The notes below the pieces were generated by a model. The model saw only the letters and a list, made by a program, of their open reading frames with translations. It was not told the origin of the DNA and made no database searches. Of a stretch of DNA of 64,000 nt, positions 13,564 through 36,828 are shown one piece after another (the first letter of the stretch is position 1; each line of letters starts with the position of its first letter). Made by a program: the position numbers and the translations under genes. Source of the stretch: an uncultured Methanosarcinales archaeon (lineage in GTDB: Archaea; Nanobdellota; Nanobdellia; Woesearchaeales; JAGVZT01); contig CAYUHF010000006.1 in the NCBI GenBank assembly GCA_964444505.1, positions 600 to 64,599 on the forward strand. The letters run 5' to 3'.

Positions 13564-14259
13564 TCAATCTAACAGTTCATAAAAATCTGTTATCTTTGGT
13601 TCTTTCAAACCAGATTCCCAGTTTGTTGACCAAAAACCATATCTGCTGTGGTCTCCATACATGCCAACTGCTTCCATTCCATGGTCTGATATTACAAGAA
13701 GCTTTTCTCCTGTTTCTCTGCATTTTTTTGCTATTTCATCCATTTCTTTGTAAAGCATTTTCATTAGAGCTGTGTTTCCAAAGTTCAGATGGCCAATCAC
13801 ATCAACAACACTGAAATACCCCAAGACAAAGTCATGCTTTCCTATTGCATCCAGAAATTCCTTTTTTATTTTTCTGTGGTGATCAAAAGCATCTTTGTTA
13901 TACTCTTTTCTTATTTTTTCCTTGTCTTCAGTTTCAAAGTATTTTTTCAGTAGTGATCTTGACCTGTCGTGTGCATCTTTGTTGTAACTGTATCCAGGAA
14001 GGTCAATTACTATTGGATCCACAAATTTTTTGAAAAATGTTTTTTTCATTTCCCACTTCTTGTCCCACATCTCCTTTCCTTCCTGCAGTACATCATCTTC
14101 CTTGTTTTCTCCTGTGATAAATGAGCTCCAGAGCACCATTGTTCTTGGTTCTGAAAACTCTGATATGTCTGTTTTTCCATAGTGTTCTTGTTTTAAGTTA
14201 ATTGTATTGAATTTTTCAACCAGTTCTATTTCAAGCGCATCAATAGCCAGGATTATCAT
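13564..14259 (-). CDS. alkaline-phosphatase-superfamily protein (type I phosphodiesterase/nucleotide pyrophosphatase-like)
   Basis: MIILAIDAL... N-terminus, VVDVIGHLNFG and LLVISDHGM motifs typical of the AlkP core. Confidence 0.55.
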   Translation of the reverse strand: MIILAIDALEIELVEKFNTINLKQEHYGKTDISEFSEPRTMVLWSSFITGENKEDDVLQEGKEMWDKKWEMKKTFFKKFVDPIVIDLPGYSYNKDAHDRSRSLLKKYFETEDKEKIRKEYNKDAFDHHRKIKKEFLDAIGKHDFVLGYFSVVDVIGHLNFGNTALMKMLYKEMDEIAKKCRETGEKLLVISDHGMEAVGMYGDHSRYGFWSTNWESGLKEPKITDFYELLD

Positions 14260-24441: not shown

Positions 24442-25971
24442 ATGAGATTTTTTACTGCAAAAGAAAAAGAGGAAGAGGAACCAAAGACAGCTCTAGGAAA
24501 ATTTCTAAAAAAGCATAATCTTGATGTTGAAAAGGATGAAGTCCAGCTTGATGTGATAAAGGAAACAGATTATCCTATGCCACTAAAAAAGTACAGGATG
24601 ATTCTTGAGCAGCATGAGGAAAGCCTGGAAGGCATGTATTATTGGATGATTACAAATTATGAGCAGGACTGGGGTTATCATGATATTTTAAAGGTTGTTG
24701 ACTCTTTTGCTGCTTCTGAGCAGTCCAGTTTTTTTGGTGTTGCCCAGCAGAGACTTGGGCTTCAGCAGGATAAGGTAATGCAGTTTTTGCAGGCAACCGG
24801 AAAAATGGTCAAGGAACTTTTCCAGTTTGTAAGAGAGCTTAGAATTATTGATGAGAGACTGGAACTTTATGGTGATACTTATCTTGAGGATTCAAAAAAG
24901 ACTGAGTCTGCTGACATCTCTTTGAAAGGTATATGGATAGATCTTGTTGAGGGAGGTTCAAAGAATCCTTCGTCTGTCTATGGACTTGCAAGAGAGGTTG
25001 GTTTTACTATTCTCCCTGACTTGTTTTTTTCAATTAGTCCAAAACCCAAGAAGTATCTTAAAAAAGATGTTAAGAAATTAACCAGAACAGAGGCAAAAGA
25101 ACTTGTAGATGGCCAGATTGATAGTGTTGACAAGGTGGTTGATGACCTCAAGGGAGATATGAACAGAAAGGTAAGGGAAGTTCTTAAAAGAAAGTTAAGG
25201 ACTCATCTTCAATGGAAAAAAGAGACTTTTGCTGAGCTTATTACCAGAAGGAGATTTACTCTTCAGTACTTTAGGCAGCATTATGATATTATCAGGATGT
25301 ACATGCAGTGGATTAAGCCATACCTTAGGAATATTAAGAGACTGGGTCTTGATCCAGACAAGATGAATTCTGCAAGACTTGTTAGTGCTTTTGAAGGTTC
25401 TATTGTTGAGGTTGAATTTCTTGCAAAAAGAAAAACAGAGGCATATAAAGATACTAATGCTGTTGGAGTTGTGAATTTTCAGTATAGGACAAGGCCTGCA
25501 ATGTCTTTTCAGCAGGAGGGCTACCAGAGAGGCCCAAAACATGCTGGTAAGGCAAAGATAACTATAAGAGCATATGCGTGGTCTGATGATATGATAGAGG
25601 ATTATATTAAAATGCGCCAGAAAGAAGATCTTGATCTTATTGCTTCAATAGATTCTTCGCTTAAGGCAGCAATGGATGCACTTGGGGATGAGATGAAAGA
25701 GTATCTTGTTGAGGCTGGTGAGAAGCTTTTTGAAGAGGATATTCAAAAAGAGAAAGAAGATGAGCCCAAGAAACCTTCTGTTATTGAGCCCTTTGGTGCA
25801 TTATTTGATGGTTTTGGAGAGATATTTGGTGCTTTTACAGGAGGGTTTAATTTTAGTTCAAATAAGGAAAATAAGTTCAGTCCCCATGGTGGTGCAAAAA
25901 AAGATGCTGAAAACGCTGCCTGGAGGGCTTTCAAGAATTATAGAAAAGCCCACAAGATGATTACCTACTAA
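24442..25971 (+). CDS. hypothetical 509-aa mostly helical protein, Gly/Phe-rich and basic amphipathic C-terminus
   Basis: Long ORF with protein-like composition and no recognised domain. C-terminus ...FGALFDGFGEIFGAFTGGFNF...AWRAFKNYRKAHKMITY. Confidence 0.6.
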   Translation: MRFFTAKEKEEEEPKTALGKFLKKHNLDVEKDEVQLDVIKETDYPMPLKKYRMILEQHEESLEGMYYWMITNYEQDWGYHDILKVVDSFAASEQSSFFGVAQQRLGLQQDKVMQFLQATGKMVKELFQFVRELRIIDERLELYGDTYLEDSKKTESADISLKGIWIDLVEGGSKNPSSVYGLAREVGFTILPDLFFSISPKPKKYLKKDVKKLTRTEAKELVDGQIDSVDKVVDDLKGDMNRKVREVLKRKLRTHLQWKKETFAELITRRRFTLQYFRQHYDIIRMYMQWIKPYLRNIKRLGLDPDKMNSARLVSAFEGSIVEVEFLAKRKTEAYKDTNAVGVVNFQYRTRPAMSFQQEGYQRGPKHAGKAKITIRAYAWSDDMIEDYIKMRQKEDLDLIASIDSSLKAAMDALGDEMKEYLVEAGEKLFEEDIQKEKEDEPKKPSVIEPFGALFDGFGEIFGAFTGGFNFSSNKENKFSPHGGAKKDAENAAWRAFKNYRKAHKMITY

Positions 25972-25972
25972 A

Positions 25973-26479
25973 ATGTCTGATATGGATGATATTAAAAAAC
26001 TGGATCCTTATGACAGGGTTGACAGGCTAAAAAAGTTAAAAAAGGAAAGAGAAAAAGAGATGGAAGAGGCTTCAAAACTTATTGATGATGCTGTTAAGGA
26101 GATTGAGTCCCTTGAAGAGCTAAAGGAAATCCCTATTCCTCAGATAAAGGCTGTTGATATTGAATCTTTGTTTACTCCTGAAGAAAAGGAGGTTTTCAAG
26201 GCCAAGAGGTTTGCTGAGGAACAGAATCTGGAAGAGATGATTCCTCAGGATTATAATCCTGATTACGATAGCCTTTCTCCTGAGGAGCAGGCAGAGATAC
26301 TTACTGGAGCTTATAATACAATACAGGAGTTATCAGAGGCTGAATATTTGTCTTCTTCTGAACAGGAAAGACTTGAATCCTACAGGACTTTGTCAGATGA
26401 GCTTTATGACTCGGGCTGGGAGCCAGAAGAAGATGAAAAGAAGATGCTGCAGGCTGAGAGATTAATGTTTGGTGGTTAG
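25973..26479 (+). CDS. hypothetical 168-aa highly acidic coiled-coil protein
   Basis: Starts 1 nt after the upstream stop; about 35% D/E; no motif. Confidence 0.55.
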   Translation: MSDMDDIKKLDPYDRVDRLKKLKKEREKEMEEASKLIDDAVKEIESLEELKEIPIPQIKAVDIESLFTPEEKEVFKAKRFAEEQNLEEMIPQDYNPDYDSLSPEEQAEILTGAYNTIQELSEAEYLSSSEQERLESYRTLSDELYDSGWEPEEDEKKMLQAERLMFGG

Positions 26480-26480
26480 T

Positions 26481-28361
26481 ATGGTGGTTTTTGATATTCC
26501 GCATTACAGCAGCTCACTTGAGAGAGATGAGGTTGTCAATATGGATGACAAGCCTTTAAGAAAAGTTGAGCTTGGAAATATTGGTATTAGTGCCAATCCT
26601 ACAACTGACCAGCTTCAGCAGCTTAAAGCAAGGATTTTTCAGGGTGCTTCAAGGGTTGAGCTTGGTTTTTCTGGTAAGGGCAAGGGTAGTATGCAGGGAA
26701 GGCAGACTACTCCTGAAATGTACGGCAAGCACCACAGAGAGGATATCAGGCAGCTTGCTGAGATAAATGAGGTTAAGCTTACTACTCACGCTTCTTATTC
26801 TGCTGGCCCCATGTCTGGTCTTGTACAGGGAAGGTTTGATCCTAATGCAAGGGAGCAGGTTCTGCATGAGATCCAGAGGGCTATTGATTTTGCTGCTGAT
26901 ACTGCAAGGGGCGGACCAGTTGTTGTTCATTCTGGTGCTTTTCCCAGAAATATTTATGAAAGTTACAGGGATGAGGGTTTTCGTGGATTTGAGGAGGAAG
27001 ATGAAAAGGGTGTTATGTATCTTGTGGATGAAGATACTGGTAAGTTGATTACTGATGTTAAGAAAAATGAAGAAGTGATATGGCCAAAATGGAAAACAGA
27101 TGAGAATAAGGAATATGTTACGAATGGAGATGGCCAGCTTGAGCCGGTTTTTGATCCTGAGACTGGTGAGTTTGAGACTCAAAAAGCTGGTTGGCAGGAG
27201 TTCAAGAAGTATGCTGACTGGTACAACAAGAATCATCCAGGTGATGAGATTACTCCTGCACAGGCTTATTACAGGGCTACTCTTGATGCTAACAGACAGT
27301 ATTCTTTGGGATGGGCGCATCAGTATGCAGAACAATATGAAGAGATGAAAGAAAACCTGAAGAAATACGAAAAAGCTTATGAAACTTACAAGGAGATTGA
27401 GAAAAATATTCCTGAAGATGAGATGTGGAAGATCAAAAAGCAGTTCAAACAGATTGACAGACCCGACATTATACCTCCTGAGGTTGAGCGTCCTACAGAG
27501 TATCTGGAAAAAAGAATAAAGAGTATGAAACAGCAGCTGAGGGCTTCAAAAGAGATGTCCCTTTCCTCTTTCCAAAGAGCTGCTCAGGCTAAAGACCAGG
27601 CTGACAAGGCGGTTCCCATTGAAAACTACGGTATTGAACAGTCGGCAACAACTATTGCAAGGGCAGCTGAGTTTGCATATGAAAAATCAAGGGAGCTTGA
27701 AAAGCACGGTAAATTAAAACAGCCTATTACTGTTTCTGTCGAAAATATTGAGCCTGAGATGTATGGTGCTCACCCTCAGGAATTAAAGAGGTTGATACTT
27801 GAGGGCAGGAAGAAGTTTGTTGAAAGATATGGGCAGAGGTATGGCGAGGAAAAGGCAAAAGAGCTTGCCAAGCAGCATATCAAGGCGACCTGGGATATTG
27901 GGCATGCTTACATGTGGAGAAAGTATTTTGAGGGAGATCCTGACAAGAGTTTTGAGGAGAATACAAAAAACTTTAACAAATGGTTATTTAATCATATTGA
28001 TGACCTCAATAAAGAGGAGATTATTGATCACGTGCATATTTCTGATAATTTTGGTTACAATGATGAGCATGTAACACCTGGCCAGGGTATTATTCCAATA
28101 AAGGAATTTGTGGACAAGATGAGAGAGGCAGGTATAAAGGATGTCATTGTTGAGCCGGCTCACCAGGACTACAAGGCAATGCTTGGCGGATGGAGGGATT
28201 TTGGTGCTCCAATATATGGTTCTGCTCCGCCTGCAACTGGGAGCAGTTGGTCTGATATTCAGTTCTCATATTTTGGCCAGACAAGGACTCCATACTTTAT
28301 TTTTGGGGATTATTCTCCAAGCAGGGACTTTACGTTGTGGACACAGGTACCTCTTGAATAG
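26481..28361 (+). CDS. xylose-isomerase-like/AP-endonuclease-2 (Endonuclease IV-like) TIM-barrel protein with ~250-aa internal insertion
   Basis: ATG at 26481 lies 1 nt after the upstream stop, with GGTGG Shine-Dalgarno. Motifs in Nfo order: THASY, VVVHSG, SVENIEP, WDIGHAYMW, VHISDN...NDEH..PGQGIIP, VIVEP. A charged helical insert sits between VHSG and ENI. Confidence 0.65.
   Translation: MVVFDIPHYSSSLERDEVVNMDDKPLRKVELGNIGISANPTTDQLQQLKARIFQGASRVELGFSGKGKGSMQGRQTTPEMYGKHHREDIRQLAEINEVKLTTHASYSAGPMSGLVQGRFDPNAREQVLHEIQRAIDFAADTARGGPVVVHSGAFPRNIYESYRDEGFRGFEEEDEKGVMYLVDEDTGKLITDVKKNEEVIWPKWKTDENKEYVTNGDGQLEPVFDPETGEFETQKAGWQEFKKYADWYNKNHPGDEITPAQAYYRATLDANRQYSLGWAHQYAEQYEEMKENLKKYEKAYETYKEIEKNIPEDEMWKIKKQFKQIDRPDIIPPEVERPTEYLEKRIKSMKQQLRASKEMSLSSFQRAAQAKDQADKAVPIENYGIEQSATTIARAAEFAYEKSRELEKHGKLKQPITVSVENIEPEMYGAHPQELKRLILEGRKKFVERYGQRYGEEKAKELAKQHIKATWDIGHAYMWRKYFEGDPDKSFEENTKNFNKWLFNHIDDLNKEEIIDHVHISDNFGYNDEHVTPGQGIIPIKEFVDKMREAGIKDVIVEPAHQDYKAMLGGWRDFGAPIYGSAPPATGSSWSDIQFSYFGQTRTPYFIFGDYSPSRDFTLWTQVPLE
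28294..28361 (+). repeat. left copy of 68-bp direct repeat (equals the last 22 codons plus stop of the TIM-barrel gene)
   Basis: 61/68 identical to 32443-32510; perfect cores 28308-28336 and 28338-28352. Confidence 0.9.
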
Positions 28362-28457
28362 GAGAGATAGAGTTATTCATGACATACTTTACAAAGCCTT
28401 CATCATAAAAACCCCGTGTCTGTATTTGCATTCCCATTTTGTTAATTCTTAAGATTG

Positions 28458-28466
28458 TTTTTTTTT
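28458..28466 (+). terminator. oligo-T tract (T9) about 100 nt downstream of the TIM-barrel gene stop
   Basis: gattgtttttttttgag; archaeal terminators are oligo-T runs. Confidence 0.35.
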
Positions 28467-28519
28467 GAGTGCTTTTTCAGATAGTCCCGGGGGAAGATAT
28501 AATCTGCAGGGAAAACCAA

Positions 28520-28828
28520 TCATTGGGAATATTTCTCCAATTTAACTCTTCTTGCATCATATCCGAGAATTTTCTTGTCTGCAAATTCCCTGATTCTTCC
28601 GATGCCATATTCCTGCTGCACAAGGTTATATACTGAGTTCCAGATGTAGTGCTCATCAGGTTTGCATACTGGACAGGGGATAAGACCAAGACTGAAAATT
28701 TCTCTTAGACCTTGTTCTCCAGCTCCAAGTATTATCTCTGATAATCCTGTAGGTTCTCTTCTGCGTGCAGAACAGGTAGTGAGTCCGAAAAGACCTCTAC
28801 TGAGTCGTGCAGACCAGATATCAGCATA
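28520..28828 (-). pseudogene. start-less ORF remnant (102 codons) inside the islet
   Basis: Open frame ...WSARLSRGLFGLTTCSARRREPTGLSEIILGAGEQGLREIFSLGLIPCPVCKPDEHYIWNSVYNLVQQEYGIGRIREFADKKILGYDARRVKLEKYSQ* has no ATG. A 31-codon ATG-initiated frame (from 28827) overlaps it at -1/+1. Track ORF 28477-28689 is a third frame of the same DNA. Confidence 0.25.
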
Positions 28829-28883
28829 TCAGGCTATCTCGAGCAGTGTCTTTTCTTCCCCTTTGTCTGTGATGTGTAGTATC

Positions 28884-31301
28884 TCATTTGTGCGATGAAG
28901 CGTAGAGTTCCCTTTTAACTTTTAATCTCATTGCACGGCGTGATTCATACCATAAGAGTCTTGGCTCGTTCTCAAAGACAATGATCTGGTCAAAAGAATC
29001 TTTGTTTAAAGCAGGAAAAAGGGTTGTTTTTGTACCCCTGTTCCTGATCCTTCCGGATTTTTTCACATCCGTTGATGAGACTCGGGTAAAACATGGATGC
29101 ATGCTCCCGAACCTGAACCTGTTGCCGTTTCCCTGCCATGGTTCTGCAGCTTCACCCGAAAGGTGGTAGTGGCCGCAGTCAACCAATGCAGAATCCATAG
29201 GGCCATAGGCAAGTGCTGTCCTGCCCGGTGTTTTCTGCCACTTTGGATCATGGACTATTGTATTTCTAAGTGGCCCCAAATCCTCTGCCCGGAGGTAAAA
29301 GGTTACGGCATTTGAACGAGCGTCCCGTTCGTCAAACACAACCCTGTCTGCAAGGTTTTCTCCAACAAGTCCTTTCTGAACCACATACATCAGTATTTCA
29401 TGGGGGTTTATTCCCGAGCCTCTCAATGAAAGAAAAGCGTGATTTGATCCTATAAATGTTGAAATTATTTCAAGCTGAGATTTTTTTTCTAATTCAACTA
29501 ATTGTTCTATGTAATAATCTGCATCCATCTGCTGGAAGTTGCCTATGTTTTCCCATGCTCCCCTTAGTTTTCTTGCAAGTATTCTTGAAACGAATTCCAC
29601 CCTGTCCTCGATTGTTTCAATAGGTTTTGATAGCTCTCCAATTTCTTGTGAGTAATCTAATGCGGACTCTCTTCTGTATTCTGCTCCTGCTCCAGTCCAT
29701 CCTGCAGAGTTGCTTTCAATGTCATCACCGACTGTTTTCAGCATTGCAGGAACAATTGGTCTGTCCAGAAATGTCCTGTTTTCTTTCCATTTCCTTAGTC
29801 TCCTTTCCTTTGCACCATCAACAAGCGCGATATCAGTTGATGGACAAAACAGATGCATATCTGAGTGTCCTTCTTCTTCATACCATCTTTCAGGTATAGT
29901 AATCCCTTTTGTGGCCGCATCATATGCTGTTAATTCTCTTCCTACTCTTCCTTCTTCATCAATATGGAATCCAAAGAGTGCAGATATGGCTCCCTTACCT
30001 AGTCTTTTGATTGCATAATGGGAGCGGCTTCCTACTGGTTTTCTTCCTGAAAGTCTTTCAGGTTCTTTTCCTCTGACAAATCTTGCTGCTTTATCCAGAT
30101 CATGATATACAGGCAGAACGCACACATATATGCTTTCAGGGTATGAATCCAGTGGCTGGAACCACAATCCCTCATATTCTCCATTTAATTCTGCATTTGA
30201 AGGCGATGTGTCGATTCTCATGAAATCATATCTCCCCTGATGTCCTTCAACAATAAGTAAAATGTCTTTTTCATGAAGTTCCTTTGTTTTTGTGTGTATA
30301 TCTTCTGAAAGACGCTTTGCTCTGTTGACTATTGGTGAGTCATACATACGGGCGTTTTCATTCACAATAATATTATTTCCATTCACTTCTATCTCTGCTT
30401 CTCCTATCAAAAATTCAATGTCATGTTTTTGCAGTATCTCTGCATATTTCTCCTTCATGAACCTAAACCCTTCGCTTACAATCATCTGGTGCACAGGACT
30501 CTCTTTCCTTGGCCTGAAGTATTCCAGCTCTTCCTCTGAAACATTAATTTCTTTTCTCAGCTCTCTAAAACTCCTGTTAAGATTATCAAGCTCTGATTCG
30601 CAATCTCTGATTTCCTGTTTTAATGAATTAATTTTTTCATATTCTGTTTCTTCGGCCAAATCCCGCATCTCCTCCCTAAAATCACGTTTTTCCCTGTATT
30701 TTTTTCTTATTCTCGACTGGAAGAAATCTGCTCTTGCTTCAATGTGTTTAAGTCTTCCCTTGAGTTCTCTTCGGTGTTTCAGGGCAAGATAGTGTATGAT
30801 TCTGTTTGTTGAGAATCCGTCATCAGTTGACCAATGGTAATACAGTTTTGCATTGGGAAGAGCCTGTCTTAGTTCACTAAACCTTTTCTCTGCAATCTCA
30901 AATTCACGCCCCATCAGATTCTGCAGCGGGTCATTTAATGAAGGTCCTGTTTTCAATTGGTCCCGGACCTTTTCCTTAGTCATCCAGAAACTCACAAGCT
31001 CAGGCAGTTTGTATTCCGGCCTGTCTATTCTAGTTATTGCCGCAGAAAGCCAGACTGCATCTGGTTGAACCTGGCTTAGGTAGTGTATAGTGTTTATCCA
31101 GTTCCCCTGATTGAAAAGCTTGGAGTCAAAAAGCACCTGGTCCATAAAATAAACAGAGCAGGGATTGTTTTTGGGCTGGTAACTAGGTTCTACTGTGATA
31201 ACCTCCTCACCGTCAATGACATCTTGAACAATTGCATGGCCTACAATTTCTTCAAGTCCCCTCTCTACTGGCAAATAGGTCTGTATAAGTCTGTCTATCA
31301 T
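28884..31301 (-). CDS. 805-aa orphan protein: N-terminal domain, central charged coiled coil, C-terminal calcineurin-like metallophosphoesterase-type motifs
   Basis: Ordered motifs GHSDMH (DxH), VGDDIESN (GDxxD/E), GSNHAF (GNH[D/E]-like), DCGHYH (GHxH). Coiled-coil segment ...EETEYEKINSLKQEIRDCESELDNLNRSFRELRKEI... . By-eye assignment only. Confidence 0.6.
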   Translation of the reverse strand: MIDRLIQTYLPVERGLEEIVGHAIVQDVIDGEEVITVEPSYQPKNNPCSVYFMDQVLFDSKLFNQGNWINTIHYLSQVQPDAVWLSAAITRIDRPEYKLPELVSFWMTKEKVRDQLKTGPSLNDPLQNLMGREFEIAEKRFSELRQALPNAKLYYHWSTDDGFSTNRIIHYLALKHRRELKGRLKHIEARADFFQSRIRKKYREKRDFREEMRDLAEETEYEKINSLKQEIRDCESELDNLNRSFRELRKEINVSEEELEYFRPRKESPVHQMIVSEGFRFMKEKYAEILQKHDIEFLIGEAEIEVNGNNIIVNENARMYDSPIVNRAKRLSEDIHTKTKELHEKDILLIVEGHQGRYDFMRIDTSPSNAELNGEYEGLWFQPLDSYPESIYVCVLPVYHDLDKAARFVRGKEPERLSGRKPVGSRSHYAIKRLGKGAISALFGFHIDEEGRVGRELTAYDAATKGITIPERWYEEEGHSDMHLFCPSTDIALVDGAKERRLRKWKENRTFLDRPIVPAMLKTVGDDIESNSAGWTGAGAEYRRESALDYSQEIGELSKPIETIEDRVEFVSRILARKLRGAWENIGNFQQMDADYYIEQLVELEKKSQLEIISTFIGSNHAFLSLRGSGINPHEILMYVVQKGLVGENLADRVVFDERDARSNAVTFYLRAEDLGPLRNTIVHDPKWQKTPGRTALAYGPMDSALVDCGHYHLSGEAAEPWQGNGNRFRFGSMHPCFTRVSSTDVKKSGRIRNRGTKTTLFPALNKDSFDQIIVFENEPRLLWYESRRAMRLKVKRELYASSHK

Positions 31302-31437
31302 TTTGCTTCAGAAAAGTCAGGGGGAAAGTTTCCAATCTTACTGGAATACCGCTACGACTGTCCAGTTGGATTCTGACAAAAAGAGATTTGGATTCGTCTT
31401 CCCCCCTTCATTCTGAGATTTATTGAATACTATTTGC

Positions 31438-31467
31438 ATATATAATTTGTCAATATAGATTATATAT
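31438..31467. promoter_or_regulatory. 9-bp inverted repeat in the divergent promoter of the islet genes
   Basis: ATATATAAT-N12-ATTATATAT, 66 nt upstream of the AbrB-PhoU ATG. AT-only, so modest significance. Confidence 0.25.
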
Positions 31468-31532
31468 CTAAAGAAAAAACTATATGAATAACATAATAAA
31501 TACATAAATATTAGTAGTGATTAGCCAACTAT

Positions 31533-32429
31533 ATGGAGCAGAGAAAACTACAACTGGTTGCGGGTTCTACATACACAATATCACTACCAAAACAGTGGGT
31601 TATAAGAAACAATCTAAAAGTGAGTGACCACTTGACAATTTATGAGAAGAGCGGGAAGAGTCTAATAGTCTCTGTTGAGCACATCAAGGATGAAAACACT
31701 GAGATCAAGATAAATGTTGACAAGTACAGTTCCATTGAAGAGATTATTTTTTCCGTTTACTACATGGGCGTCGAAAGGATTGATCTCTGGTCTGAGAAAT
31801 CAATAATACCTGAGAAGAAAAAAATAATACGGAGGGCTGTCAGAAAGCTGAGTGGTGTTGAGATTATTTTTGAGAGCAAGAAAATGATCACATTGAATCT
31901 TCTTTTAGATAAGTCAAAGCTGAACATTAACCAGATTCTTTACAGGATTTCACTTATCATTCTCCAGTCTATTGACAGCATAGATAATGGTGATGAGATT
32001 GAAGCTAATGAGAAGGAGATCGACAGGCTTTTTCACCTGAGCAAGGCAATTTTATCTCTTTCTATGAGAAATCCGGGGATACTTGAGAGTTCTGGTGTTG
32101 ACAATCTTCTTCTGATTCCCTCGTATAACGGGATTGCAAAGAAATTTGAAAAGATTCATGATGATCTTTATAGGCTTGTAAATTATTACCAAAAAAGTGA
32201 CATTGGAGAGATAATAAAATACACAAGAGAGGTTACAGAAACTACGAGGGATTTCATACTGAAGCCAGGGAAACCTGTTGACATAGAGTCAGAGGGTCTT
32301 GAGGAGAAGGCTGATACTTTCGGCAATTCTGTTGCAATACTTCTAAGAGATCTTGTAACTCACACAAGAGATCTTGAGAAGCATCTTGTGCAGTTCTCCT
32401 TTTACAGGAGTATTGAGAAGGATAAATAA
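31533..32429 (+). CDS. AbrB/SpoVT-domain plus PhoU-like-domain transcriptional regulator (archaeal phosphate-uptake-regulator family)
   Basis: N-terminus LQLVAGSTYTISLPKQWVIRNNLKVSDHLTIYEKSGKSLIV (AbrB fold). C-terminal helical repeats with ..NEKEIDRLFHLSKAIL.. (PhoU-like). Confidence 0.7.
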   Translation: MEQRKLQLVAGSTYTISLPKQWVIRNNLKVSDHLTIYEKSGKSLIVSVEHIKDENTEIKINVDKYSSIEEIIFSVYYMGVERIDLWSEKSIIPEKKKIIRRAVRKLSGVEIIFESKKMITLNLLLDKSKLNINQILYRISLIILQSIDSIDNGDEIEANEKEIDRLFHLSKAILSLSMRNPGILESSGVDNLLLIPSYNGIAKKFEKIHDDLYRLVNYYQKSDIGEIIKYTREVTETTRDFILKPGKPVDIESEGLEEKADTFGNSVAILLRDLVTHTRDLEKHLVQFSFYRSIEKDK

Positions 32430-32598: not shown

Positions 32599-35500
32599 TC
32601 AAGTTGTACAAGAAGGCCTACTTGAATAGATTTGATCTTCTTCACATCCTGAATCACAATCTTTTGGTTCTCCCCATTCTCCTCCTTCTTCACACTTCAT
32701 GTATTTATAGAATTGTCCTTCTGTATAGCAATAGTATTCTCCAACTTCAATCTTTTCTGCATTTTCAATACAATTACTCTGGTCACATTTTGTGAAATCA
32801 TCTTTCCATTCTGTGTTGCTACAATACCAGCATGTTTCACCATCCCAAAAATGCTCTCCGTTTCCTAGTGTTGATGATCGGAGGATTTCTTTTGTCAATC
32901 TATCATTATTATCAACATGACATACTCTATTACAGCCCCCCTCATATTTTTCAGGTTCTGCTCCTTCTTCTGTCATAACACACAGAAGACATTCCGTTTC
33001 GCCTTCGAAAGGACCAAAGTAAATATAGCCAGGTGCATACTCTCCCTCACATAGACAATGACTAGGTTCATCATAATTGGGTGTAAGTGTTCCATCTTTA
33101 CATTCATAACAAAGATTTTGACCCCCGTATGTATACTTCTGTTGGCAGTAATGATCTGGACATCCCTCTGGAAAATCAGTCCTAAAGCTATTATCCTGAC
33201 AAAAGTAGCACTGACCGTCATGGAATACACCTTGTCCACTATCTACCCAGCCATCATCTCCCAAATCCTCAGGTAGATTCTCATCAAGTACAGAGCAGCC
33301 TTCACAAAATGATTTATCTACAATTTTCCATTGGCTGTCACCATTTTTTTGATGTTCTTTGCATTCAACACATTTACCACGTGATGTTCTGACTGTTTTG
33401 CCTGGCCTCGTGTTACCACAATAGCATCTAGAATTCGCTGTTTCACGCCAACCATCAGGGTTTGCTGCACTTACTCCAACACATTCATGGCATGTGTTAC
33501 CAGCAAAATAATAATCTCCTTTTTCTCCATATCGTTCTGCAATAGGACCTTCAACACAGATATCCTGAGACTGCTGATTGCGACTTATGCATAATTTACC
33601 CTCTGTTGTTGTTATATGCTTACATTCACCTATACCACAAGGATCCTCTGAACAAGCAGTTTCAACATCCTGAAAACTATTATAATCCAAACAGGTAGTT
33701 ACTTGGTCACATTCATTTTGTCCTACATCCGGTTGTTCATAATCACAAGCAGCAAAATTACTACATGTTGCTCCCTCATGGCACACCCCAGAACAGTCCT
33801 TACAGCTGATATAAGAACATGGATCATTAGGCTTATTCTCAACGCAGCATCCCCACATTTCTGTATTTTGATCGTTACATCTAATATCTTGGTCACAAGA
33901 TTTTGAAATCCAACCAACATGATAATCTTTAGTTTCGCAAACTTCTTCCCCCATATTATCATTACACCGATAACCACCTGGAACAGCAAGTATACAGCAA
34001 CCCTTTAAATCTACCTCATCAGCCTCTTCAGCTGTCACGCATCTTGCAATATCCCCTTCTTCTGCACAACCATACTCACATTCGGTATTTATAGGACTTA
34101 CTGGAGCCGGCCCTTCCCATCGGGTTATAAGAGTATCACCATCACAGGTCAAAATGACCTCTCCTTTTGTTGATGGATTGTTGCACAAAGACATATCAGC
34201 TCTTTTTGCTCCAGGAACAGGTTCGACGGCTACAGAGCACACAGTATCTTCTTCATTACACCAACACCGTTTGTTAATCTGCCCTTTACAGTGGCTAAGA
34301 TAATCAGATTGTATACCCATATCTTCCAAACTAGCCTTCAATCTATCATAATGCGCATATATTTGATTTCTACAGCAATATGAATTGGTGCCATCTGCTT
34401 TTGGCTGATATTTTTCCCCACCGCATATGCAGCCCTCATTTGCAGTTGTCAAAACAGTTCCACAGTACTCTGTTCCCTGAAACATTCCTCCTGTTGTTGA
34501 AGCCAGTACTGTTCCTGAACCTGTTTCGTATTCCTCTGGATCATATGTTATGTGTTCACAGTAGTCTGCTCCCCTTTCAGCAGCCCATTGTCTGAAACTC
34601 ACTGAGCTAAAACTATCATATCCAACCTCAATCTCACAAAGACTTGTGTCCATAACATTTGTCCCTTCTTCTCGCATGTAGTCCCTGTACAAAGCAAGAC
34701 AGTTGAGTTCTCTTCCGTGAGCTGAATCAGGATCCCAAACAGCTCCAAGTTTCTCCTTTTTTGCATAGATCTCATTTATTCTCTTCTGCACTGTAGGTTC
34801 ACACTCATCAAAGAACTTAATGCCCACCCCACCAAATTCCATTTCTTTGCCTGCAAACATCTCAACATTCACTAAATTATTCAGATATACTTTTATCCTA
34901 TTTGTTCCTTGATTAAGAGCATTCATGATTTCCTCAGGCGTTTCTACAGGTACATCGTTGATCTTAAGAGCACAACTATCTGAACAGATTTCATTTGTAT
35001 TTGTTGGTCCATCTGCTTGTTGCGTATTACCTGCTCCCTGATCGACGAGATTACCTGTTACTGCTGAATTTGTTGGATTCATATCGTTAGTCGTAACCCA
35101 TCTAGATGAATCCGCACAAGAATCTCCGTTTTCTTTAAGTTCCAAAACAATTTCTGCATAACCTCCAAGAGTTATGTCTTCATCTGATACTGCTGAAGCT
35201 ATTGGGTTGCCTTCAATTATCTCATAGCCATATGTTTTCGGTGTTGCATAGAAAGCCATATTATTTCTAGGGCACTCCATTGTTTTCTCTCCATTACCAT
35301 CGCATTTGTCAACAATATTGTCAAAGGGTCCATTATGACTTGAACTCCCCACTATACAGCTTTCTGCATTTACTTCAACAATGTATTCTTCAGCTTCATC
35401 CTCACAGTCCTCTTCACAATTAGCTCCACGCCCACTCCAAAGACATGACTGGAGACAATTATAGTACTTTGCACCATCCATCTCTTTTTTCACCTTACAT

Positions 35501-36828
35501 CTTAGCTCAGCAAGGTTATCATTTATTCCATCACCAGACATTTCCCAATCTTCATATCTATCTTCTGCCTTTTTCTGGCACGCTTTAATGCATTTTTGCT
35601 TTTCTGCATTATCTAGATTTGTAATTTCAACACCATTGTGATAAAACTTTACATTATTTATTGTATTATCTGAATCATCATCATCATCCTCATCCCAATC
35701 TCTAAGTAAATCGTCACATACACTCACCAATTGCCCATTCATTAGATGAGCAACAGTATCTGCATTTCCTCTTGTAAGATCACAATTTTCTCCATCCATT
35801 GCCTCTGGTATCAAATGCATTCCGTCTACTTTGTTGTCCATCCAGTATTTTGACTCAACCGGCTCAATTGGATGCTTGAAAACTTCCTTTAAGTCAATTG
35901 TTACAGGTTCATCATTATATTGTCCACATGTTACCACTGCAATCATTGTGAAATGGTCGACAAGACATTCAAGTTTGTATGTCTGGGTCTGATCGTTTTT
36001 TGTGACAGAAACTGTCGGGTATGTTCTCCACACACCACTCTCTTGATCATAATAAGCACATTTCAAATCTTGGTATGGAAATCCTAATGGCTTATCCTCA
36101 TAATCAGATTCTATCTGAAGGTTAATTGGAGGGTCAAAAATTGCTCCGTCAGGTTTGCCTTCATAGACTACTGTTCCTATGACAACATCATTACTAAGTC
36201 CATCAAAACTTCTGTCGATAATCTTCACACTTAGTGGATCGGTTATGGTATTACCTAACTGGTCAGTTATTCTTGTACCCTGTGGAATCTCTATCTCAAC
36301 ATCATTATCAGAAGCAACAACTACCTGGCTTCTTGTGGTTCTCCCATTGGCATCAAAACTCATCTGCCTGCTCTGCTCCCTGTTAATAAAGTAATTAAAG
36401 TGCTCTAGCTTTGAGTTTGCCCCGTTCTTTTCAATGTTTATTGGATACTGCATGTCTACAAGCACCGACTGCTCTGTGATTGTTGCAACTACTATTGGGT
36501 CCTGTGCTCTTACTGTCATGCCTGTTTTCGAGAATATTTCAAAATCTATGCAATCTCCAATGTTGTTTTCAATATATGTTGAAAACATCTCTTCATTGCC
36601 GTCCAAAAGACCAAATATATCTATTGCTTCGCCAGTTGTTGTCTCAAGACAGCTCTGGACATATTCTTTTACAGCTTCTGATTTTGATTCAAACTCAGCA
36701 CTCTGATAAGTGCTTATTTCTGGATTTTCTGAGTCAAGATTTTTTAGAAAATATATGAATCCGAATGTTCCTATTAGGACAAGTAATAAAATAAAGAAAG
36801 CTGTAAGTAACTGACCCTTTTTTGACAT
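32599..36828 (-). CDS. giant (1409 aa) secreted/membrane-anchored cysteine-rich surface protein
   Basis: N-terminal TM/signal anchor (LLTAFFILLLVLIGTFGFIYFL). The C-terminal ~550 aa hold repeated G-x2-C-[YWHVL]-[EFYL]-C modules (CHECVG, CVECKEH, CYFCQDN, CYECKDG, CLLCV, CWYCSNT). Confidence 0.8.
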   Translation of the reverse strand: MSKKGQLLTAFFILLLVLIGTFGFIYFLKNLDSENPEISTYQSAEFESKSEAVKEYVQSCLETTTGEAIDIFGLLDGNEEMFSTYIENNIGDCIDFEIFSKTGMTVRAQDPIVVATITEQSVLVDMQYPINIEKNGANSKLEHFNYFINREQSRQMSFDANGRTTRSQVVVASDNDVEIEIPQGTRITDQLGNTITDPLSVKIIDRSFDGLSNDVVIGTVVYEGKPDGAIFDPPINLQIESDYEDKPLGFPYQDLKCAYYDQESGVWRTYPTVSVTKNDQTQTYKLECLVDHFTMIAVVTCGQYNDEPVTIDLKEVFKHPIEPVESKYWMDNKVDGMHLIPEAMDGENCDLTRGNADTVAHLMNGQLVSVCDDLLRDWDEDDDDDSDNTINNVKFYHNGVEITNLDNAEKQKCIKACQKKAEDRYEDWEMSGDGINDNLAELRCKVKKEMDGAKYYNCLQSCLWSGRGANCEEDCEDEAEEYIVEVNAESCIVGSSSHNGPFDNIVDKCDGNGEKTMECPRNNMAFYATPKTYGYEIIEGNPIASAVSDEDITLGGYAEIVLELKENGDSCADSSRWVTTNDMNPTNSAVTGNLVDQGAGNTQQADGPTNTNEICSDSCALKINDVPVETPEEIMNALNQGTNRIKVYLNNLVNVEMFAGKEMEFGGVGIKFFDECEPTVQKRINEIYAKKEKLGAVWDPDSAHGRELNCLALYRDYMREEGTNVMDTSLCEIEVGYDSFSSVSFRQWAAERGADYCEHITYDPEEYETGSGTVLASTTGGMFQGTEYCGTVLTTANEGCICGGEKYQPKADGTNSYCCRNQIYAHYDRLKASLEDMGIQSDYLSHCKGQINKRCWCNEEDTVCSVAVEPVPGAKRADMSLCNNPSTKGEVILTCDGDTLITRWEGPAPVSPINTECEYGCAEEGDIARCVTAEEADEVDLKGCCILAVPGGYRCNDNMGEEVCETKDYHVGWISKSCDQDIRCNDQNTEMWGCCVENKPNDPCSYISCKDCSGVCHEGATCSNFAACDYEQPDVGQNECDQVTTCLDYNSFQDVETACSEDPCGIGECKHITTTEGKLCISRNQQSQDICVEGPIAERYGEKGDYYFAGNTCHECVGVSAANPDGWRETANSRCYCGNTRPGKTVRTSRGKCVECKEHQKNGDSQWKIVDKSFCEGCSVLDENLPEDLGDDGWVDSGQGVFHDGQCYFCQDNSFRTDFPEGCPDHYCQQKYTYGGQNLCYECKDGTLTPNYDEPSHCLCEGEYAPGYIYFGPFEGETECLLCVMTEEGAEPEKYEGGCNRVCHVDNNDRLTKEILRSSTLGNGEHFWDGETCWYCSNTEWKDDFTKCDQSNCIENAEKIEVGEYYCYTEGQFYKYMKCEEGGEWGEPKDCDSGCEEDQIYSSRPSCTT

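Follow-up and report, generated by a model that had tools for sequence, protein, structure and literature searches.

The window analysed here is a 64,000-nucleotide stretch of contig CAYUHF010000006.1 (assembly GCA_964444505.1), a piece of an archaeal chromosome with a mean GC content of 0.374. Two of its genes are transcribed divergently from a common spacer: one encodes an 805-aa protein that is probably a binuclear metallophosphoesterase (MPE), the other a 298-aa one-component regulator of the AbrB-PhoU type. EF-1alpha, the RIO1 kinase, a PAC2 proteasome chaperone, a ribose-phosphate pyrophosphokinase and two tRNAs are also encoded in the window. The gene pair had been singled out in an earlier note made from the letters of the sequence, and the positions of the two open reading frames (ORFs), their divergent orientation and the 231-bp AT-rich spacer are all as that note had placed them. 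The coiled-coil peptide quoted there is located at aa 223–252 of the 805-aa protein. The features of the pair are listed below in window positions, the domain boundaries of the 805-aa protein being approximate.

28884–31301, minus strand: ORF of the 805-aa protein (P0001), from a rare family of large predicted MPEs that lacks annotation
31302–31532: divergent AT-rich intergenic region of 231 bp (GC 0.307), where both promoters are presumed to lie
31438–31467: inverted repeat ATATATAAT-N12-ATTATATAT, with 9-nt arms made up of A and T
31533–32429, plus strand: gene of the 298-aa AbrB(SpoVT)-PhoU type one-component regulator, so assigned from its PF04014 match and from full-length homologs with PF04014 and PF01895
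30828–31244, minus strand: N-terminal alpha/beta domain of the 805-aa protein, about aa 20–158, delimited from the secondary structure of the model, with conserved R-x-D-R-P-E and DD motifs
30519–30827, minus strand: antiparallel coiled-coil hairpin, about aa 159–261, formed by helices 159–216 and 221–261
29886–30518, minus strand: middle alpha/beta domain, about aa 262–472, with conserved RPRKESxxHQ and EGHQG motifs and the GAISALFGFHIDEEGR block
28962–29885, minus strand: predicted MPE catalytic core, about aa 473–780, with conserved motifs that each follow a beta-strand in the model, and with Foldseek matches to the MPE fold

The predicted metallophosphoesterase core of the 805-aa protein

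The C-terminal half of the protein had been read as carrying the motifs of a calcineurin-like phosphoesterase in canonical order. A calcineurin-like MPE with the full set of metal-ligand motifs is borne out by conservation within the family and by the fold matches of a confident structural model. The canonical signature of calcineurin-like enzymes consists of D-x-H, G-D, G-N-H-[D/E], H and G-H-x-H, and motif II, which is GDxxDR-like in this superfamily, supplies the bridging Asp. The consensus of the family (SDEH ... GD..EAN ... GNHAD ... HDP ... GHTHE) fits this signature in the usual order and with the usual spacing. All seven canonical metal and catalytic ligands are present in the C-terminal third of the 805-aa protein, in the following motifs:

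GHSDMH, aa 478–483, window positions 29853–29870: motif I, D481-x-H483 (SDMH being aa 480–483)
VGDDIESN, aa 524–531, window positions 29709–29732: motif II, G525-D526
GSNHAF, aa 618–623, window positions 29433–29450: motif III, N620-H621
H684: motif IV, at least 90% conserved
DCGHYH, aa 708–713, window positions 29163–29180: motif V, G710-H711-x-H713

The family alignment comprises 31 sequences with a mean column identity of 23% and contains nine invariant columns, six of which are D481, H483, G525, D526, N620 and H621. E529, G710, H711 and H713, like H684, are each conserved in at least 90% of these sequences. The motifs noted in the 805-aa protein are thus no chance occurrences. A helical insert of about 60 aa (547–607) separates motifs II and III.

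The prediction of the structure with AlphaFold from the single sequence was of no use, with a predicted local distance difference test score (pLDDT) of 33. When the family alignment was supplied, a pLDDT of 87.6 and a predicted template modelling score (pTM) of 0.86 were obtained, and every MPE motif lies just past a beta-strand in this model. The comparison by Foldseek that the earlier note had called for matches the model with MPE-fold proteins; the fold of this superfamily is a two-sheet alpha/beta sandwich with the motifs at the ends of strands. The top 11 matches in BFVD consist of seven named metallophosphoesterases, i.e. every named one in the list, and four proteins without a name; no further named fold occurs among them (E-values from 4.9e-7 to 6.6e-3, probability 1.00). 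Against the PDB the E-values begin at 3e-3 and are weaker, as one would expect from a query with several domains. Apart from coiled coils, the PDB matches of high probability are PolD DP1, the Pol alpha B-subunit, LpxH and purple acid phosphatase; Mre11-Rad50 is also present, at a low probability (0.23). At the sequence level, one of the 31 family members matches PF00149 (Metallophos; E=3.2e-4), and the family consensus aligns with the second half of this model, in register with GNH and GHxH (motifs III–V), at an E-value of 0.034 and 15.0 bits for a cut-off of 21.5.

Some observations weigh against an assignment to the MPEs. No curated sequence model reaches its threshold, and the 805-aa protein itself has no PF00149 match. 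Its motif III is GSNHAF, without the usual acidic residue after the His, for a family consensus of GNHAD. Finally, when the C-domain profile was compared by hhalign with SbcD and LpxH of E. coli as single sequences, motif V alone could be aligned, with probabilities below 2% (19 residues around this motif in the case of SbcD), such single-sequence templates being too weak for the purpose. Taking motif and fold evidence together, we consider it very likely that the modelled protein has an MPE fold with a probably intact binuclear site.

We can thus describe the 805-aa protein as probably an active binuclear phosphoesterase, as judged from its motifs and its model, with the C-terminal third as the putative catalytic core. 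It is predicted to be cytoplasmic: no transmembrane segment or signal peptide is predicted, since the highest hydropathy over 19 residues is 0.98. Within the calcineurin-like superfamily (PF00149; phage MPEs, LpxH, purple acid phosphatases) its likeness consists of the five motifs in canonical order, the seven ligand and catalytic residues and the fold match. It differs in that the Pfam model does not recognise it, in its size (805 aa, versus about 200–450 aa for the matched proteins), in the helical insert between motifs II and III and the GSNHAF form of motif III, and in the 470-aa module with a coiled-coil hairpin that precedes the core.

The earlier note could name no family for this protein, and this holds for the curated libraries: Pfam, NCBIfam, PADLOC and PHROGs gave coiled-coil noise alone, and the weak matches (SMC, JetC, LmuB, Cast) all fall within about aa 175–290. 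In a word-indexed homolog search with the full 805-aa query, the coiled coil dominated to the point that no protein other than the query was recovered. With aa 270–805 as the query, P0002 was recovered, a protein of 908 aa that is 40% identical and can be aligned from end to end. The cluster of P0002 (locus L001, 10001–12727) is labelled 'archaellum component FlaC' by the Joint Genome Institute (JGI). This label is almost certainly a misannotation that apparently has its source in the coiled coil and nothing else. When 1.84 billion representative proteins were searched exhaustively by HMMER, with the C-terminal alignment as the query, 33 representative clusters were recovered at E<=1e-3, and 28 of these also at E<=1e-10. 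Their length is about 800 aa in most cases, and they include no ordinary phosphoesterase. Four members (P0003 at L002 8001–11750, P0010, P0014 and P0015) reach 1130–1250 aa by means of an extra N-terminal region of about 350–400 aa, which has no Pfam match. A sequence search of the PDB with the single 805-aa protein returned nothing. The matches obtained there with the family profile were designed repeat proteins sharing 'GHTH', and coiled coils, and were rejected as spurious.

The family is rare and centred on DPANN archaea. One named relative, HLC22752.1, comes from a metagenome-assembled genome (MAG) of Candidatus Nanoarchaeia; other members come from metagenomes and from the NCBI assemblies GCA_041305145.1 and GCA_964604755.1. 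Two pattern-based scans of the GTDB species-representative genomes gave pattern matches and no confirmed relative, an outcome bounded by the patterns used; despite this result, two NCBI MAG assemblies do carry family members. The host of the distant locus L016, where neighbouring genes include a GGDEF protein and a sigma-70 region 4 match, could be bacterial. In a neighbour-joining tree, P0001 to P0006 form one clade. We found no paper joining DPANN, metallophosphoesterase and coiled coil, and none mentioning assembly GCA_041305145.

The coiled-coil hairpin and the N-terminal module

The architecture of the 805-aa protein is unusual, with an N-terminal alpha/beta domain, an antiparallel hairpin of about 100 aa and a middle domain placed ahead of the MPE core. 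The two helices of the hairpin are modelled with a pLDDT of about 83–93 and contain 47% charged residues, and the alignment shows that the length of the hairpin varies among homologs. All of the spurious SMC, JetC, LmuB and 'FlaC' matches originate from this segment. The hairpin may serve in oligomerisation or in the binding of a substrate or a partner. The enzyme would most likely hydrolyse a phosphodiester or pyrophosphate bond in a substrate of nucleic-acid or nucleotide-derived type, by analogy with the structural neighbours (the DP1 and Mre11 nucleases, the LpxH pyrophosphatase and phage phosphoesterases).

The combination of a hairpin with an MPE-fold hydrolase raises the question of whether the protein is a nuclease that processes DNA ends or structures, like Mre11/SbcD or the PolD DP1 exonuclease. 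The coiled coil would then be within the nuclease chain, and not in a Rad50/SbcC partner, and the protein might act together with a separate AAA+ ATPase. The best-scoring PDB fold matches are consistent with this idea: they are the exonuclease subunit DP1 of PolD (8ppt_A, E=3e-3, probability 0.98) and eukaryotic polymerase B-subunits including those of Pol alpha (4y97, 3.5e-3), multidomain proteins with an MPE-fold domain, and Mre11-Rad50 is matched too. Moreover, an MPE-fold hydrolase and a long antiparallel coiled coil are what Mre11/SbcD and Rad50/SbcC bring together, and in some sister subfamilies an ATPase gene lies directly downstream of the enzyme gene. In the distant subfamily (L006 2935–4035 and L016 10388–11506) the gene directly after the phosphoesterase gene encodes an AAA ATPase (PF00004) whose N-terminal part bears a short coiled coil, and at L002 (11728–13365) and L008 (1538–3175) a ComM/Mg-chelatase-like AAA+ gene overlaps the end of the phosphoesterase gene.

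However, the match with Mre11 is weak, and about equally good matches are obtained with purple acid phosphatase and with the pyrophosphatase LpxH. The template modelling (TM) scores with DP1 and the B-subunits are low (TMt 0.15–0.29). The search of PDB sequences with the family profile was without Mre11, SbcD or DP1 signal, and similarity to Mre11/SbcD, capping domain included, was found neither in this search nor by hhalign. In contrast to the coiled coil of Mre11-Rad50, the one found here is in the same chain as the hydrolase, is short (about 50 residues per arm) and has no zinc hook; the 805-aa protein contains no CxxC and no P-loop. The ATPases encoded next to other family members are of the AAA/AAA+ and not the ABC type, and no ATPase gene of either kind adjoins the window copy. 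A Rad50/SbcC ABC-ATPase gene is adjacent neither to the window copy nor at any homolog locus, and none of the loci showed a homolog of DP2 or Rad50. As regards the polymerase B-subunits, these are catalytically dead, whereas the 805-aa protein keeps all ligands. A nuclease of the Mre11 or DP1 kind is thus unlikely, and the broader description as an MPE acting on a substrate of nucleic-acid or nucleotide type is preferred.

The N-terminal 470 residues were also compared with the core that they precede. Within the close subfamily R91, D93, R94, P95, E96, D160 and D161 are conserved, and throughout the wider family this part of the protein retains sequences that look like worn MPE motifs, namely GALxRxDRPE, S-x-DD and E-S-G-H-H-G. 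The order of strands and helices in the model parallels that of the catalytic core, and the N-terminal domain (about aa 20–158) could represent the initial half of an MPE-like domain that has degenerated and into which the hairpin is inserted, an idea that comes from this parallel order only. No signal of an internal duplication was obtained when the profile of the N-terminal and middle domains was aligned by hhalign with that of the C-domain. The same profile gave no more than a local motif V match with the single E. coli SbcD and LpxH sequences (probability below 2%), and Pfam recognised nothing in the family consensus of this module. It is tempting to go further and to view the whole protein as a single-chain pseudo-dimer, in which a dead first MPE fold (aa 40–158 plus 262–472, with the hairpin inserted, and GALxRxDRPE, S-x-DD and E-G-H-x-G as relic motifs) is followed by a live C-terminal core. 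Such a protein would be a new DPANN-specific machine for the processing of nucleic acids, functionally analogous to Mre11-Rad50 together with the adjacent AAA+ ATPase of sister lineages, and placed here under a phosphate- or metal-sensing AbrB-PhoU switch. We regard this proposal as quite improbable.

The AbrB-PhoU regulator and its link with the enzyme

The gene on the other side of the spacer had been described as an AbrB-PhoU type regulator, and we agree with this description given the PF04014 match and the full-length homologs that have both AbrB and PhoU domains. The SpoVT/AbrB (MazE_antitoxin) domain, a DNA-binding domain of the swapped-hairpin type, is N-terminal (PF04014, E=2.4e-7, 31 bits versus a cut-off of 24.7) and is found in all 13 homologs. 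The C-terminal part of the 298-aa protein does not itself reach the PhoU model (PF01895), this region being too diverged for the Pfam model in comparison with typical AbrB-PhoU regulators. Among the aligned relatives 11 of 13 do match it (best E=3.7e-14), the homologs being aligned over 99–100% of the length of the window protein. In a search of the PDB with the regulator family profile, the best match was the PhoU homolog 4q25 (E=0.003). Some of the full-length homologs are annotated as 'phosphate uptake regulator', the name under which archaeal AbrB(SpoVT)-PhoU proteins are often found. No pst or pho transport gene was present among the neighbouring genes scanned.

The inverted repeat reported in the spacer is present at its indicated position. 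Its arms are 66 nt upstream of the start codon of the regulator and 137 nt upstream of that of the enzyme. No other 9-nt inverted repeat made up entirely of A and T, with at most 30 nt in its loop, occurs in the 64-kb window. When the spacer was shuffled 2000 times with its dinucleotides preserved, 119 of the shuffles (about 6%) had a repeat as good as this one, which is of borderline significance. The equivalent spacer of L004 holds a similar TTTGCTATATAAT...TATATAT element. The repeat could correspond to back-to-back archaeal TATA-like boxes, or equally to an operator; taken by itself it is suggestive and no more. The AbrB-PhoU factor would probably control both the enzyme gene and its own gene from the shared 231-bp spacer, and the enzyme would be conditionally expressed, plausibly with phosphate or metal status sensed through the PhoU-type domain.

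The gene neighbourhoods of about nine independent loci encoding family members were read (Table of loci below). The earlier note had proposed to look for co-occurrence of the enzyme homologs with AbrB-PhoU genes: this association recurs in two loci outside the window, and elsewhere a TrmB gene or no regulator is found.

Window (P0001): AbrB-PhoU gene, divergent
L004 (P0005): AbrB-PhoU gene, divergent, 189-bp spacer
L001 (P0002): AbrB-PhoU gene, divergently upstream, separated from the enzyme gene by one unrelated 434-aa gene
L003/L007 (P0004): the divergent upstream gene encodes a TrmB regulator
L002 and L008/L009 (P0003): TrmB gene divergent from an operon for ADP-forming acyl-CoA synthetase subunits, the family member, the ComM/Mg-chelatase-like AAA+ ATPase and a methyltransferase
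L005: no regulator seen; upstream genes for a radical SAM protein and AMMECR1
L017 and L018: other neighbours

The AbrB-PhoU gene is therefore found divergently upstream of the enzyme gene in three of the loci, and the three members concerned (P0001, P0002 and P0005) span the P0001–P0006 clade. At four further loci whose upstream sequence could be read there is a TrmB gene or no regulator. The enzymes of the window, L004 and L001 are 31–40% identical, and nothing beyond the regulator and the enzyme is common to these three loci; these two genes are also the only ones that the window shares with L001. A conserved operon partner common to all loci was not found.

Regulation of the enzyme by its neighbour is something that we infer from position only, and several further points weigh against it. 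Two sister lineages carry TrmB in place of AbrB-PhoU. The regulators of L001 and L004 (31% identical) group with each other, and the window regulator falls in a different AbrB-PhoU subclade. Its closest homologs (38–39% identity), which are the members of this subclade that were checked, one of them from a Candidatus Diapherotrites MAG, are encoded in unrelated neighbourhoods in which the enzyme is absent. Also, PhoU type and TrmB regulators count among the most populous regulator families of at least one archaeon, Pyrococcus furiosus, where they account for 8% and 9% of the transcription factors (PMC6316755), so some of the adjacency of regulator and enzyme could be coincidence. This could mean that the pairing in the window is fortuitous, the AbrB-PhoU protein acting on other targets or on itself and the enzyme being controlled otherwise. 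Against such a coincidence stands the finding of the same architecture at the same divergent position in three of about nine independent loci with well-diverged enzymes and no other shared gene. This recurrence is far above chance, since by our own estimate this class of genes makes up less than about 1% of genes. A chance pairing is accordingly somewhat unlikely in our opinion. The association is neither universal nor strictly co-inherited, yet it is far above chance, and for these reasons a dedicated divergent one-component regulator, usually placed over the enzyme gene, fits better than a fixed two-gene system.

Chromosomal setting and surrounding genes

The earlier note had suggested that regulator and effector could form a self-contained accessory module, with a role in defence (against viruses, for instance), in addiction or in the maintenance of an element, and located on a small islet inserted by horizontal transfer. 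Base composition gives this proposal some support. The gene of the 805-aa protein (GC 0.416) and the adjacent gene of a 630-aa TIM-barrel protein (0.425, the highest) have the two top values among the 55 ORFs of the window (mean 0.376, standard deviation 0.023), i.e. deviations of about +1.7 and +2.1 standard deviations, and the GC content at third codon positions (GC3) of the regulator gene is high. A foreign origin of the region from 26.5 to 32.4 kb is possible because of these values. The family is patchy and rare, the DNA-binding domain of the regulator is of the MazE/AbrB antitoxin type, and the sharing of just these two genes with L001 could also be understood in this way.

The islet is nevertheless the weak part of the earlier observation. 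The sole tRNA genes of the window are about 15 kb from the gene pair, and no integrase or transposase was found among the flanking genes scanned, flanking direct repeats not having been searched for. PADLOC-DB 2.0 gave only JetC, LmuB and LeoBC matches (E from 5.5e-5 to 0.03), all weak and in or overlapping the coiled coil, and nothing for the regulator; PHROGs gave nothing real. No relative was detected in a pattern-seeded scan of the 2.9 million viral contigs of IMG/VR. The homologs are flanked by archaeal housekeeping genes, such as those for PheRS alpha and beta, Pelota, Hef, L34e, ABCE1, GCD14, DnaG and RIO1, and the regulator partner is inconstant, being TrmB or absent elsewhere. Type II toxin-antitoxin pairs with a MazE/AbrB-type antitoxin are small co-directional operons with a short antitoxin; here the genes are divergent and encode large proteins of 298 and 805 aa, and the AbrB domain is joined in one protein with a putative PhoU-type domain. 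A self-contained accessory module thus appears very improbable.

The explanation that we favour as a whole is that the 805-aa protein is a cytoplasmic and probably active binuclear MPE of a rare DPANN family, encoded by an ordinary chromosomal gene, conditionally expressed under the divergent AbrB-PhoU regulator, and not part of a mobile defence or addiction module. We put its probability at roughly 60%. The view of an ordinary chromosomal gene follows from the presence of EF-1alpha, RIO1 and PAC2 in the same window and from the housekeeping flanks of the homologs. A function class, binuclear metallophosphoesterase, can in this way be proposed for a family that escapes the curated models and appears as 'archaellum component FlaC' in one public source. 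Nothing indicates a new type of system, and the superfamily itself is a familiar one: what is new is an architecturally unusual member, with its uncommon pairing of a coiled-coil hairpin and an MPE core, in little-studied archaea. The genomes of DPANN archaea are very small and these organisms rely on their hosts for nucleotides and phosphate-containing building blocks, and the 805-aa enzyme may for this reason be a reasonable candidate for the salvage or processing of nucleic acids or nucleotides. The value of the assignment lies mainly in annotation and in the choice of targets for DPANN biochemistry.

Several other genes surround the pair. The 630-aa TIM-barrel gene (26469–28361, plus strand) encodes a xylose-isomerase-like AP_endonuc_2 domain that is interrupted by a long charged insertion. 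At L001, a small TIM-barrel protein of the same type (278 aa) is encoded some 1.7 kb downstream of the family member of this locus; by tblastn the two TIM-barrel proteins show no direct similarity. Directly upstream of the 630-aa gene, on the same strand, are two adjacent orphan genes (24442–26479) for a 509-aa protein and a very acidic 168-aa protein, both without a match in Pfam, NCBIfam, PADLOC and PHROGs. A gap of 520 bp (28362–28883) separates the convergent TIM-barrel and phosphoesterase genes. It contains a stop-free frame of 102 codons (28523–28828, minus strand) without ATG, GTG or TTG start and without Pfam match, overlapped by a 70-aa ORF in another frame. This stop-free frame may be a decayed gene.

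Just past the regulator gene, a cysteine-rich protein of 1409 aa is encoded on the minus strand (32599–36828). It has an N-terminal hydrophobic segment and no Pfam match, and its aa 24–136 resemble (28% identity, E=9e-7) a 1265-aa protein at L007 (12756–16553, minus strand), which likewise has no Pfam match and whose gene is convergent to that of the L007 family member. This resemblance may point to a second recurring neighbour, or to residual synteny only. Finally, a 231-aa protein encoded next to tRNA-Ser (13564–14259, minus strand) shows a weak match with type I phosphodiesterase/nucleotide pyrophosphatase (PF01663, E=4e-6), and its gene is a second phosphoesterase-type gene in the window, unrelated to that of the 805-aa protein.

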